This document shows, piece after piece, positions 3,326-21,580 of a stretch of DNA of 64,000 bases. The position numbers and the translations under genes were made by a program. Position 1 is the first letter of the stretch, and the number at the start of each line of letters is the position of its first letter. The notes under the pieces are model-generated. The model made no database searches. It was not told the DNA's origin and was given only the letters and a program-made list of their open reading frames with translations. The DNA is from a virus, in IMG/VR virus record IMGVR_UViG_3300036852_000134, positions 18,865-82,864 of that record; one strand, given 5' to 3'.

Positions 3326-3635
3326 GGCCTAGTTCCTGGCTCACTGCAGTAAGCTCGTCCAACGCCCTTGCGCGATCAGTTACGACGCCAAAAGCTTCCA
3401 GCTCCATCTCCGTCCACTTGACCGCGGTGAACGGCCCCACGACATAGAGCCCCTTGTCGGTCTGCGGTATGCACCAGTAGCAGTCGTGGGCCGGCACATA
3501 TCCAGCACGCCAGTTCGCCTTGTTGGCTATGAGCTTGGCGTAGAAGTCCTCGCCCATCTCTCTGATGTAGAGGGAGAGGCGGGACTCCGCGAGGTCGCGG
3601 AGCTTGGAGTGGAAGGCTTCGGTTTTAGCGACCAC
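3318..3635 (-). CDS. Hypothetical protein
   Basis: ORF in operon context, overlapping the GT start. Confidence 0.55.
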   Translation of the reverse strand: MVAKTEAFHSKLRDLAESRLSLYIREMGEDFYAKLIANKANWRAGYVPAHDCYWCIPQTDKGLYVVGPFTAVKWTEMELEAFGVVTDRARALDELTAVSQELGLE

Positions 3636-17794: not shown

Positions 17795-18796
17795 TTATTC
17801 CGCAGCCTCTGTGATGGCGGCGAATAGATCAGCTGGTTTCGATTGCGTCTCGACTGATTTCAGATTGGCGACCGCCTGTCGAAAGTAGCTCGCTTTGAGT
17901 TCCGCACCGATCGCCTTTCGGCCCATCTCCACTGCGCAATAAGGCTCAGACCCGATGCCCGCGAATGGGCTGTAGACCGTATCGCCTGGATTGCTCCACA
18001 GATCGATGCAACGGCGGATTACGGTGAGCTGCAGTGGCGATATATGGCGCTCATCATCTTGCTCTCTCGCCATGCTGCGCGAGAGCACGTCGGACTGATT
18101 GATGTCGAGCCAAATGGGCTCTGCGTAGCGCTGCCAAACCGCGACAGAGTACCAGTTGTCGCCAGGATAGTTCTTGGTCTGCATCCGGCCCGTCTCCGTG
18201 ACCAACGGCCCGCTAGGCGCCGCCTCGCTCCCGTAGTAGGCGTCGAAGGCGCCGGCGATGGGCTCAGGGTTGTCGCCCGGCTTGCGCATCGTCACGATGT
18301 AGTCTGCGACCGCCATGCGGGAGAGCGCCGAGTCCTTGCAAACCTGCTTGTGCAAGAGGCCGATGGACTTGGAACGCTGCATCGCGGCAACCGGGTCTTT
18401 CCTGATGCAGACCTCGCTGTGGTATATCCAGCCCGCGGCCTGGAACGCGCGGATGATCTCGCCGCGGAAGTCCCGCAACCCAATGAACCCGTCGCGTGTT
18501 TTGGACGTGGGCAGCTGCATGCAGTGCGTCGAGCACAGCCGGCCCGGCATTGTCGCTCGGAACAGTTCCCGGATCAGGAATCCGTAGTGCTCCCAGAACG
18601 TCCCACTGTTCGTGCAATTCGACATATCGCGCGGATGGTCCGAGAACGTGTAGAGGCTCTCGAACGGGGGCGAGTAGACCGTGTAATGGAGCTTCCCATC
18701 GGGGAGCCCGCGCGTCACGTCCACACAATCCCCGTTGTAGAGAACGAAGTTCTTCCCGATGGCTTGGTCTACGATTTTAACGGAATGATATTCCAC
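17795..18796 (-). CDS. DNA N4-C/N6-A methyltransferase (beta class)
   Basis: GDCVD, SPPF catalytic motif, HISPLQL, VYSPFAGIGSE, GAELKASYF. Confidence 0.9.
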   Translation of the reverse strand: MEYHSVKIVDQAIGKNFVLYNGDCVDVTRGLPDGKLHYTVYSPPFESLYTFSDHPRDMSNCTNSGTFWEHYGFLIRELFRATMPGRLCSTHCMQLPTSKTRDGFIGLRDFRGEIIRAFQAAGWIYHSEVCIRKDPVAAMQRSKSIGLLHKQVCKDSALSRMAVADYIVTMRKPGDNPEPIAGAFDAYYGSEAAPSGPLVTETGRMQTKNYPGDNWYSVAVWQRYAEPIWLDINQSDVLSRSMAREQDDERHISPLQLTVIRRCIDLWSNPGDTVYSPFAGIGSEPYCAVEMGRKAIGAELKASYFRQAVANLKSVETQSKPADLFAAITEAAE

Positions 18797-19223
18797 GGCG
18801 CACCTCGCTCATACGATTGATCCTGCCGTCTGCTGTCATGTGGCAACGACGGCATAGGAACTTGATATTTTCCGGGTTGTTGTTTGCGGTATCGCCGTCG
18901 ACGTGATGTCGTTCCGGTCTCTTAGACGAACCACAGGACCCACACGGCTTCTTATCCGGGAACCATCTCAACGCTCGCGAACGCCCGCTGCGCTCACTCA
19001 CATCATCGCCTTTCCATTTATGGTGGCGATCCCGCGACTTGGCTTCGCCGATCTTTCTCAAGTGCTCCGGCGATTTTGGGCCGCGACCAAATGTTGAAAG
19101 CCTGCACTCCTGAGAGCAATATTGCGGTCCACGACGAGACGGCCGAACGTACCGTTCAAACGACCGGCCGCAGCACACACAGCTTCCGCTCCAATTTGGC
19201 GTGGCTTCGTGCTTCACAACCAT
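18777..19223 (-). CDS. HNH homing endonuclease
   Basis: CxxCG..F, YCSQEC, CGSCG, HHVDGDTANNNPENIKFLCRRCH. Confidence 0.85.
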   Translation of the reverse strand: MVVKHEATPNWSGSCVCCGRSFERYVRPSRRGPQYCSQECRLSTFGRGPKSPEHLRKIGEAKSRDRHHKWKGDDVSERSGRSRALRWFPDKKPCGSCGSSKRPERHHVDGDTANNNPENIKFLCRRCHMTADGRINRMSEVRRGISFR

Positions 19224-19711
19224 GCTGGCAACTCCATGCTGCGTTTCGGCTCATAGGTGGAAGTCGAGACACGCCCACCGCGAACTTCAACGCGGCACAG
19301 ATCGATCATGTGGGCTGCCATGGCTTCGGCCATGGCCTCGTACTTGCGCTCTTTGTCCTGGAGGTTCTTGACCACCGCGCCCTCGATTTCCGAGGCGACC
19401 ATGTAGACGTTGACCTCGCGGGCCTGCCCGAAGCGCCAGCAGCGGCGGACGGCTTGGAACACCCCCTCAAAGGAGTCGTTCAGCCCGCAGAACACCATTC
19501 TGTTGGCGACCTGCCAATTGAGACCGCGACCAAAAATCGAAACCTTTGTGATCATGATAGGAACGTCCGTCGTGCGCCATTCGCGCTCCTTGCGTATCTT
19601 GTCTTCGTGGCTGTCTGCGCCACGGATCGACACGCAACGCCCTTTAAATGCTTCCTCAAGAGCATCTTGCTCAGCGTTGAGGGTGCACCATATGACCCAC
19701 TTCTCACGCAT
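19214..19711 (-). CDS. SNF2-type helicase, C-terminal half
   Basis: KWVIWC.LN.EQD, ITKVSIFGRGLNWQ, FQAVRRCWRFGQ (motif VI). Confidence 0.85.
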   Translation of the reverse strand: MREKWVIWCTLNAEQDALEEAFKGRCVSIRGADSHEDKIRKEREWRTTDVPIMITKVSIFGRGLNWQVANRMVFCGLNDSFEGVFQAVRRCWRFGQAREVNVYMVASEIEGAVVKNLQDKERKYEAMAEAMAAHMIDLCRVEVRGGRVSTSTYEPKRSMELPAWL

Positions 19712-20162
19712 CCGCGTTCTCTCTTTCCTTGATGCGCCGAACAATGTCAGCCTTATCAAGATAAAGCGCAGCTTGCCGCAAGCGAGCAGCATCATCCTTG
19801 AAAGATCCAAGGGCTTGGTTGCATCTTAGGCACAGAATGCCGCGCACGGTATTTGTGGAGTGGCAATGGTCGATGACCGGGAAGACATTCGGGTCAGACA
19901 TGTCATCGTAACCGCATATTGCGCACTTGCCGCCCTGCTTGGTGAAGATTGCGTCGAACTCTTGCGTGCTAAGACCGTAGACGCGAGCTATTCTACGCCA
20001 TCTCAACCTACTTCTTATTATGTCTCGATTTTTCTTTCTCCACTCAGCATCTGTTGCTTTGCGACGATCATCGGTCGGATAACGCGAGCGTCTCCGTGAG
20101 ACAATGTCGTCTCTGTTTTGCCTATAGTATTCCCGCATGTACGGCGCTTTATCTATGGCCAT
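19704..20162 (-). CDS. Endonuclease VII-type homing endonuclease inserted in the helicase gene
   Basis: YGLS..EF...F.KQGGKCAIC, IDHCH...VRGILCLRCNQALG.FKD; AT-richer DNA. Confidence 0.9.
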   Translation of the reverse strand: MAIDKAPYMREYYRQNRDDIVSRRRSRYPTDDRRKATDAEWRKKNRDIIRSRLRWRRIARVYGLSTQEFDAIFTKQGGKCAICGYDDMSDPNVFPVIDHCHSTNTVRGILCLRCNQALGSFKDDAARLRQAALYLDKADIVRRIKERENADA

Positions 20163-21060
20163 CAATTATCCCTTTCACCGCTTCGACGCGTTCTTTTATT
20201 GTATCACGCCTTGCGCCTAATCGTTCAGAAAGCGTAGAAGCTTCCGTGGGGAAAAGCATTCCATTAACGTGCGTGTTCTCCACTTGGACCGTGACCTGGT
20301 GCATGGTGAGCGGCGGCAGATCGTATCCGGAATCTTCGTACCCAAGTTCGCGCGGATGCCGGATCATGACGGCCCATGACGCAACCCAGCGCCAGAAGTC
20401 ATCTTGGGCGTGGCCTTTGAGGCGCCATTCCTCCCCGTTCACATCAGCCCGCACGGCGCCGTCATGGACGAAGAACATCGCCAGCATTTCCTTGGCCGAC
20501 ATGACGCCAAGGAACTCGGCATGCTGGCCAAGTTCGGTCCAGTCGTTCGGCGCTGGCGTGGCGGAGCCGCACAGCAGATACGGAGTAGACCGGCAAGCCT
20601 CAGTCAGATCGCGCCGAGTCTTGCTGTCCTGGTCCTTGATGATGCCGCTTTCATCAAGGATGATGCCGGCGAACTTGGAGATATCGAACTTGTCGCGGCG
20701 GTCGTAGTTCGTGACGACGATAGGCGTCTTGGCGGCGCTCTGATCGGCCGCGTAGGCGACGCCCTTGATGCCGAACTTGGCGGCCTCATTGACGGTCTGC
20801 TCCGCGACCGCGAGCGGGGTGAACAGAAGGACTTGAGCCTTGGTGCGCCTGACGACCTGCTGCCCCCAGGCGAGTTCCATAATGGTCTTACCGAGCCCCG
20901 TGCCGGCAAAGATCGCGGCGCGCCCGCGGCGACAAGCCCAAGTCGTGATGTCTCGCTGGAACGGCTTCAACGCCGCCGGCAGCCTACCCGGATCAAAGCC
21001 GGACGGCGGCACTGCTACGACCTTGCGGGCAAGGAAGCCCTCATACTCGGTGTCAAGCAT
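20149..21060 (-). CDS. SNF2-type helicase, N-terminal half
   Basis: LKPFQ, AIFAGTGLGKT, ILDESG, SATPAPND. Confidence 0.9.
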   Translation of the reverse strand: MLDTEYEGFLARKVVAVPPSGFDPGRLPAALKPFQRDITTWACRRGRAAIFAGTGLGKTIMELAWGQQVVRRTKAQVLLFTPLAVAEQTVNEAAKFGIKGVAYAADQSAAKTPIVVTNYDRRDKFDISKFAGIILDESGIIKDQDSKTRRDLTEACRSTPYLLCGSATPAPNDWTELGQHAEFLGVMSAKEMLAMFFVHDGAVRADVNGEEWRLKGHAQDDFWRWVASWAVMIRHPRELGYEDSGYDLPPLTMHQVTVQVENTHVNGMLFPTEASTLSERLGARRDTIKERVEAVKGIIDGHR

Positions 21061-21248
21061 TACGCCGCCTCCCCCATCTTCCCAGCCTCAGATGCAGCAC
21101 GGGCGGAGGCCGCTTTGGCCATTTTCTGGCGCTTTAGGGTCCTCGCGGCCTTGATCGCGGCCGCCCGGCGGATCTGCGCCTTTGTTTTGATTGTAGGAAA
21201 CTTGACCCACGGGAAACGTTGTATGAGCACCGACAGCTTCTGGCTCAT
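21060..21248 (-). CDS. Small basic hypothetical protein
   Basis: Coupled on both sides. Confidence 0.55.
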   Translation of the reverse strand: MSQKLSVLIQRFPWVKFPTIKTKAQIRRAAAIKAARTLKRQKMAKAASARAASEAGKMGEAA

Positions 21249-21580
21249 GATACGCTCTCCGGCCCCAAATTCGGCTCTGGGAGCCTTTCGGCATTAGCGG
21301 CATCGGAGATGGCGGCGGAGGAGAGAACGGGCGCCACGGGCGAAATTTGGGGGGTTCCTGCGCGATCTAAGACGGCAGCCGACTGCTTGCACCCGGCGCT
21401 GGCTAAATCGACCACACAAGCTTCCACCCTGCTCAGGGTCTCGCCGATGCTGCGCCCGTGGGCGAATAGGCCCTTGATGTCCGTGGACTCCGCCATAAAG
21501 AGGCCGCACGCATGGCGCGTCACCTTCACGGTGAGCACGCGCTCCCAGCCTGCTGGCTCCTGTTCCTTCGCTTCGCTCAT
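21245..21580 (-). CDS. HicB-like (DUF1902-like) protein
   Basis: GLFMAESTDIKGLFAHGRSIGE. Confidence 0.6.
   Translation of the reverse strand: MSEAKEQEPAGWERVLTVKVTRHACGLFMAESTDIKGLFAHGRSIGETLSRVEACVVDLASAGCKQSAAVLDRAGTPQISPVAPVLSSAAISDAANAERLPEPNLGPESVS

Follow-up and report, generated by a model that had tools for sequence, protein, structure and literature searches.

When an endonuclease gene interrupts a phage gene, the product is usually restored by an intron or an intein. A rare type of fragmentation that dispenses with splicing was described in Aeromonas phage Aeh1, in which the free-standing HNH gene mobE splits nrdA into two genes whose products, NrdA-a and NrdA-b, were shown to reassemble into an active enzyme, and in which insertion-derived tails of NrdA are reported to be essential (Crona et al., 2010; PMC3045599). 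In fractured genes, a free-standing endonuclease gene is bordered by split inteins (Dassa et al., 2009; PMC2677866), and in the arrangement found in the 'ShiLan domain' and Pacc40 gp60, HNH genes lie out of frame within methylase or helicase-methylase genes of phages, and the host gene remains open in its own frame (Arsenault, Gosselin and Gogarten, 2025; PMC11855218). Here we analyze a 64,000-nucleotide stretch of the viral record IMGVR_UViG_3300036852_000134 (positions 18,865 to 82,864; hereafter the window), which comes from a soil phage and in which an SNF2-type helicase is encoded as two cistrons, an N-half and a C-half. Between them, at the position of the loop that joins the two lobes of the helicase, lies the gene of an endonuclease VII-family protein (EndoVII). 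The helicase backbone places this allele in a lineage in which all other known members are uninterrupted.

Aeh1 nrdA/mobE is the closest mechanistic precedent for this locus, and overprinted elements of the ShiLan type are its closest relatives by descent. As in Aeh1, a free-standing endonuclease gene of the His-Me-finger type sits within a conserved enzyme gene with neither an intron nor an intein, and two separately translated polypeptides would result, for which we propose a comparable reassembly. Unlike in the Aeh1 case, the host gene encodes an SNF2-like motor that is cut at a domain boundary, the endonuclease is a member of the endonuclease VII family, and the two halves carry no added N- or C-terminal tails, the N-half ending and the C-half starting within 3–4 residues of the homologous junction; moreover, the same element is found elsewhere in a read-through state that does not break its host gene. 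The likeness to ShiLan lies in a related gene neighborhood (helicase and methylase) and in a set of relatives of the window's locus in which the endonuclease occupies another frame and the open host frame encodes a loop predicted to be disordered. The window differs from that type in that its host frame is closed, with a stop and a restart of its own, such that the gene is truly split, in that its endonuclease is endonuclease VII-like rather than of the HNH/AP2 type, and in that the site lies between two helicase lobes. Fractured genes share with the window a phage DNA-metabolism gene in two pieces with an endonuclease gene between them, but in the window there are no split-intein halves, the residues of the two pieces abut, and no intein domains were found among the Pfam matches. 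Published endonuclease VII-like homing endonucleases that lie out of frame in inteins are likewise out of frame with respect to the host gene, but those occur within splicing inteins of polymerase, capsid, terminase and thymidylate synthase genes, whereas the host here is a helicase with no intein. Full-text literature searches returned no account of an SNF2 helicase in two pieces, nor one of such a pairing of a helicase with an endonuclease VII.

An earlier note on the window, made from its letters alone, had proposed three open reading frames (ORFs), with the entire gap between the helicase halves filled by the EndoVII ORF, which would overlap both the N-half stop and the C-half ATG and supply a purine-rich ribosome-binding site, and with the C-half restarting as MREKWVIWC. 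The ORF listing, its translations and direct reading of the sequence bore out this layout, including overlaps at both junctions (Table 1). The N-half ends in ...ERVEAVKGIIDGHR at its stop codon, and its tail contains a Shine-Dalgarno-like GAAAGGGA located 7 nt upstream of the EndoVII start, for which an ATG at 20162 and a TTG at 20165 are candidates (the ORF ends at 19704). The C-half starts with an ATG at 19711, which is preceded by the purine-rich AAGGAAAGAGAGA and stands immediately ahead of strand 1 of lobe 2. The N-half, EndoVII and the C-half occupy three different reading frames, and because the insert contains 13 stops in the frame of the N-half and 6 in the frame of the C-half, neither a single indel nor a one-base assembly error can account for the break. 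Over positions 18500–21500, a Logan contig from an independent assembly (probably of the source sample) was identical to the window and showed neither gaps nor joints nor an endonuclease-free variant, a comparison that speaks to the agreement of a second assembly only. The Pfam assignments of the three ORFs (with Endonuclease_7 matching the insert ORF at E=3.8e-21) were in accord with those of PHROGs. The source record is 82,864 bp long, has direct terminal repeats and is rated 100% complete, and it holds one copy of the helicase and one copy of the endonuclease. A scan for promoters and terminators yielded nothing over shuffle expectation.

By its sequence profile and predicted structure, the helicase is an SNF2/Rad54-like superfamily 2 (SF2) ATPase with two RecA-like lobes and motifs I–VI, in agreement with the SNF2-type assignment in the earlier note. 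A profile of the family matched the solved structure 1z63 (E=1.1e-13) as well as CHD1L, DDM1 and Sth1. An AlphaFold model of P0003, the closest uninterrupted relative (pLDDT 82.9, pTM 0.82), when used as a Foldseek query, returned Mot1, Sth1, Chd1, ISW1, CSB and RapA as its top matches (E 1e-15 to 1e-18, TM ~0.6–0.67). Nearly all of the best 120 homologues are single proteins of 464–470 aa, and the window's two halves sum to 468 (303 + 165). The nearest relatives, which are 82–87% identical, are uninterrupted and 467–501 aa long; the N-half is 87% identical to the initial ~300 residues of P0003 (467 aa). When the halves were placed in the family alignment, as the earlier note had suggested, they abutted, with nothing lost or duplicated. 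The note had put the break near the junction of the two RecA domains, and both model and alignment placed it exactly at the boundary between lobe 1 and lobe 2: in the P0003 model, the site is a six-residue loop (301–306) between helix 288–300 and strand 307–311 (strand 1 of lobe 2), with the N-half ending 3 residues past the helix and the C-half starting 4 residues ahead of the strand. The halves were also as intact as they had seemed on first inspection. Neither contains a stop, a frameshift or a lost invariant residue, and of the strongly conserved (≥90%) family positions, the N-half keeps 101 of 102 and the C-half keeps 45 of 53, the eight C-half changes at such positions being common to other split alleles. 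The P0003 model has, in addition, a 36-residue helix (H409–444) after motif VI, a candidate for the brace helices by which SNF2 enzymes connect lobe 2 to lobe 1.

Table 1. Features of the split helicase locus and its downstream neighbors, with positions in the window.
Feature	Position	Strand	Description	Basis
Helicase N-half	20149-21060	minus	303 aa; SNF2 lobe 1 (motifs I-III) and following helical region	Pfam DEAD, SNF2-rel_dom
Endonuclease VII-family (His-Me finger) gene, free-standing	19704-20162	minus	152 aa	Pfam PF02945, phrog_2914
Helicase C-half	19214-19711	minus	165 aa; SNF2 lobe 2 (motifs IV-VI), long C-terminal helix, tail	Pfam Helicase_C
Overlap of N-half stop and EndoVII start	20149-20162	minus	14 nt, ATGGCCATAGATAA	direct sequence reading
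Overlap of EndoVII stop and C-half start	19704-19711	minus	8 nt, ATGCGTGA	direct sequence reading
Imported cassette (limits approximate)	19487-20250	minus	~760 bp; endonuclease gene with ~33 upstream and ~75 downstream helicase codons	
HNH endonuclease-like ORF	18777-19223	minus	148 aa; between C-half and methyltransferase	phrog_1271 (E=6e-12); weak Pfam HNH_3
N6/N4 DNA methyltransferase	17795-18796	minus	conserved downstream partner of the helicase	Pfam PF01555, phrog_67, phrog_16; synteny count

If the two pieces were rejoined into a single chain, as would happen with a group I or group II intron, with protein trans-splicing or with long-range ribosomal bypassing, the helicase would be split in its gene only. 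Such rescue has the general habit of interrupted phage genes on its side, and bypassing does exist, with T4 gene 60 as the established case. Against it, Rfam gave no match in the window at E≤1 and nothing at gathering score in seven related loci, the RNA fold of the insert (z-score -0.53) was no better than that of shuffled sequence, and the whole 437-nt gap is coding, for a conserved protein, which leaves no non-coding space; the earlier note's contention that there is no room for an intron thus stands. Nor does protein splicing fit, since the ends of the N-half and C-half lie 3 and 4 residues from abutting positions, leaving no room for split-intein halves, and Hint and intein families were absent from the Pfam matches of the window's proteins. 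Furthermore, the helicase frame runs on across the insert in some relatives, so the element does not depend on splicing. Bypassing, which the note had offered as one of two possible outcomes, found no support: ribosomes would have to hop at least 437 nt over a conserved ORF, compared to the 50 nt of the known bypass, and the C-half is equipped with an ATG and a Shine-Dalgarno sequence of its own, at a position common to many stand-alone C-halves. We therefore regard the restoration of a single chain by any of these routes as very improbable.

The endonuclease gene and the helicase codons that flank it have an ancestry unlike that of the helicase backbone and shared with endonuclease-bearing or split alleles. 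GC content at third codon positions (GC3) was 0.40 in N-half codons 261–303, 0.55 in the EndoVII ORF and 0.60–0.69 in C-half codons 1–75, as compared to 0.73–0.81 in the remainder of the helicase; over the cassette (Table 1) it ranged from 0.33 to 0.69. The AT-richer DNA that the earlier note had seen in the N-half was therefore real, but the tract is larger than first noted, extending through C-half codons 1–75. Identity to P0003 followed the same mosaic, with 85–100% over most of the N-half and 63–75% in its last 40 residues, then 20–42% at C-half residues 16–75 and 73–100% from residue 76 on. By comparison, several stand-alone C-halves from other phages shared 73% identity with the window at C-half residues 16–30. 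In a tree of the backbone (N-half residues 1–260 plus C-half residues 76 to the end), the window grouped, with good support, with P0003, P0004, P0005 and P0008, all of them uninterrupted (89% identity to P0003). In a tree of the flank (C-half residues 1–75), the rows nearest to the window were the split alleles L158 and L157, and all endonuclease-linked alleles came together in one clade (98% support). To account for the read-through state, 1 change sufficed on this tree, as compared to 12 on the backbone tree. A drop in GC3, mosaic identity and discordant trees are together the expected signature of homing with co-conversion, and this signature indicates that the cassette entered by homing, with co-conversion of its flanks. 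On this account, the donor allele would already have been split, and the break would have been brought in along with the endonuclease gene and its flanks.

The EndoVII ORF (phrog_2914, E=2e-31) retains an intact metal-binding and catalytic motif, CxxC...DHxH...CxxCN (KCAICG...IDHCH...VRGILCLRCNQALG) and could be aligned with residues 10–72 of T4 endonuclease VII (1e7d) and with Hpy99I. Homologues that are 35–42% identical, with the catalytic motif intact, are found at this helicase site in 12 further loci, such that the element is present in 13 of the ~150 related loci that we classified from viral, metagenomic and genome collections, most of which are uninterrupted; the site is always before the WxIWC strand. 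The ORF might nevertheless be a homing endonuclease no longer, or might never have been one, and instead be a Holliday-junction resolvase or packaging nuclease that happens to reside here, given that PF02945 includes T4 gp49, a true resolvase, and that homologues are annotated as resolvases in many phage records. Such a resident does not readily explain the sporadic spread of the element, always at one precise site in a conserved gene, its foreign composition, or the disagreement between the ancestry of the flanks and that of the backbone. The lineage, moreover, has kept to the helicase site across 35–42% sequence divergence, and the same fold is sequence-specific in Hpy99I, which is the best solved-structure match of the window's EndoVII. 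We consider a resident resolvase or packaging nuclease improbable, and note that it would be compatible with mobility in the past. The structural and evolutionary account given so far, comprising the anatomy of the locus and the mobility of its cassette, seems to us highly probable.

Among the related loci, the site also occurs in other states. In the read-through state (L010, L017, L041, L051, L065, L078 and L036), an insert of ~145–190 codons is open in the host frame, with the endonuclease encoded in another frame. We checked in detail L036, which is the cultured Gordonia phage Malisha (OP434458.1, 42853–44712). Its gp71 carries the annotation 'DNA helicase' as one protein of 619 aa, and at the inter-lobe junction it has, in the other frame, an intact, unannotated endonuclease VII ORF of 179 aa from stop to stop; gp64 of the cultured Gordonia phage Squiddly (MN096370.1) appears, from its search rows, to have the same form. 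Proteins of 616–696 aa made up ~45 of the best 120 'longer' protein matches, and all 11 that were fetched, an NCBI Rhizobium 'DEAD/DEAH box helicase' among them, carry the insert at the same site. The insert of such read-through proteins, ~180 residues long, is predicted to be disordered: in an AlphaFold model of one of them (P0245), residues 304–483 had a pLDDT of 25–35 and no secondary structure, and lay between two confident lobes. When codons were permuted synonymously, the chance of finding zero stops in the helicase frame was 0.005–0.63 in seven loci, with three loci at 0.005–0.04. Selection for an open frame is argued for by the whole set and by these three low-probability loci only, the per-locus odds being less extreme than a naive estimate. 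A further locus, L039, is read-through-like, but has a TGA (3516–3518) in place of the conserved tryptophan of WLIWC, right after the insert; its zero-stop chance was 0.93, and the TGA could be the mark of a pseudogene, a sequencing error or recoding.

The split state with an endonuclease was found in the window and in L058, L161 and L162, and the split state without an endonuclease was found in two loci, L157 and L158. In L157, the stop codon of the N-half overlaps, at ATGGATAA, a start from which a fusion of the C-half with a methyltransferase is read; in L158, the halves are separated by a 17-nt spacer that carries a GGGAGGGG Shine-Dalgarno sequence. In both loci (L157, 1434–2873; L158, 1320–2687), lobe 2 is fused in frame to an N6/N4 methyltransferase, such that the two lobes reside on separate polypeptides, one of them bifunctional. 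The earlier note had raised the possibility that homologues are already two genes without the insert; this is the case for these two distant relatives but not for the closest kin, which are uninterrupted. For this reason, and because both L157 and L158 group with endonuclease-bearing split lineages, they do not refute the view that the element split the gene. A candidate relic of the endonuclease in L157, in which the '...ING' at the end of the N-half tail would derive from the '...WING' that ends EndoVII in L162, was rejected when DNA alignment showed the match to be the ATGGATAA repeat at different offsets. Stand-alone C-halves of 163–180 aa are numerous, some on contigs of 45–87 kb, and start with M-[R/D/E]-[E/K]-[K/Q]-W-x-I-W-C; fifteen that were fetched are 41–53% identical to that of the window, with the same start residue and with motifs IV–VI kept. 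A scan of viral contigs for the MREKW-type start pattern gave no match, and a metagenome scan returned only uninterrupted or truncated loci, with the 82–87% identical relatives not among the results. A 306-aa protein, P0002, is near-identical to the first 306 residues of P0003 and ends at ...KPDEP, which is the insertion site; it could represent a further interrupted allele or the end of a contig.

How such a locus might work can be outlined as follows. During co-infection, the endonuclease would cut an endonuclease-free allele, and repair from an already split donor would co-convert the flanks. Five cistrons in overlap, from the N-half through EndoVII, the C-half and the HNH ORF to the methyltransferase, would lie on one transcript and be translated through coupling at the overlapping stop and start codons, with Shine-Dalgarno-like purine runs before the EndoVII and C-half starts. 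The N-half and C-half would then associate non-covalently into an active ATPase, held together by bound DNA and ATP and by the native interface of the lobes, to which the long C-terminal helix in lobe 2 would probably contribute. In the read-through relatives, the lobes are joined only by the disordered tether of ~180 residues and must therefore meet through their own interface and substrates, so that loss of the tether would be a small and plausible step.

A two-chain helicase resembling Aeh1 NrdA with mobE is the most likely and best-supported reading of the locus, but several observations weigh against it. The halves have not acquired interaction tails of the kind seen in Aeh1 NrdA. Most element-bearing relatives, in many lineages, keep the tether, and the frames kept open in these relatives suggest that a covalent tether is favored and that the split state is perhaps costly. 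Among cultured phages, the read-through form was the only one seen and no split form was found, and a search for RNA runs with DNA of the window listed none. Finally, import of the cassette may be recent, in which case the intact backbone is by itself no proof that a split helicase works. These last points lead to the alternative that the helicase is inactivated, with the cassette having recently broken a dispensable gene and the halves being young, undecayed pseudogene fragments. The 89% identity of the backbone to that of uninterrupted kin means that import could be this recent, and the open frame kept in many lineages implies that a break has a cost. However, split alleles of the donor type are old and diverse, and yet their start is conserved and all of their motif residues are kept. 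Two split alleles persist without an endonuclease, and do so with their coupling signals intact. The window's own halves likewise lack the lesions expected of decay, and both of its junctions keep a start codon and a Shine-Dalgarno sequence. Inactivation thus appears unlikely, and we return to the two-chain helicase as the preferred reading. That the two chains form a functional helicase, by analogy to Aeh1, is in our judgment moderately probable, and the same holds, with a fair degree of confidence, for the best explanation taken as a whole, two-chain activity included.

The genes downstream of the C-half bear on the wider history of the locus. The methyltransferase directly abuts the helicase, or is fused to it, in 135 of the ~150 related loci, and because of this usual adjacency, the HNH ORF that separates the two in the window looks like a second, independent insertion. 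This ORF has a GC3 of 0.59, and its overlaps with the C-half and the methyltransferase measure 10 nt and 20 nt, respectively. Unrelated inserts of 200–830 nt occupy the helicase-methyltransferase junction in nine other loci, and fusions of the helicase with the methyltransferase, 730–800 aa in length, occur among the relatives. A different kind of disruption is seen in L045 (2818–4901), in which a fusion of lobe 2 with the methyltransferase starts ~20 residues ahead of the usual site, downstream of an HNH ORF and another methylase, with no N-half found within 3.5 kb upstream. Within the same helicase family, P0243, P0249, P0252–P0258, P0269–P0271, P0282 and P0323 include members of 775–1144 aa with intein domains (PF14528, PF14890, PF13403 and PF07591) at other sites, the others being methyltransferase fusions of 730–800 aa. 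Mobile elements frequently target this family of helicase genes.

One consequence concerns annotation. The read-through form is labeled as a single helicase in Malisha, in a Rhizobium record and in dozens of metagenomic proteins, with Squiddly apparently the same, and we confirmed that the endonuclease ORF of Malisha is missing from the GenBank annotation. For the biology of such elements, the window adds a second host gene to a rare type of fragmentation; the case for splicing-free fragmentation of an essential-type enzyme gene by a free-standing endonuclease rests mainly on a single studied example, Aeh1 NrdA. It further adds a motor cut exactly between its ATPase lobes, together with an allelic series that runs from uninterrupted to tethered, to split with the element, to split without it. 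This series makes testable both how much weight the covalent link between RecA lobes carries in an SF2 motor and whether selfish endonucleases bring about lasting gene fission. Tentatively, we suggest that one endonuclease VII lineage may occupy a single inter-lobe site in two states, an overprinted tether and a stop-restart split, and that loss of the element from the latter may leave permanent two-gene motors, some with lobe 2 fused to a methyltransferase, as in L157 and L158. If so, endonucleases of this kind would drive lasting gene fission and the reshuffling of domains.

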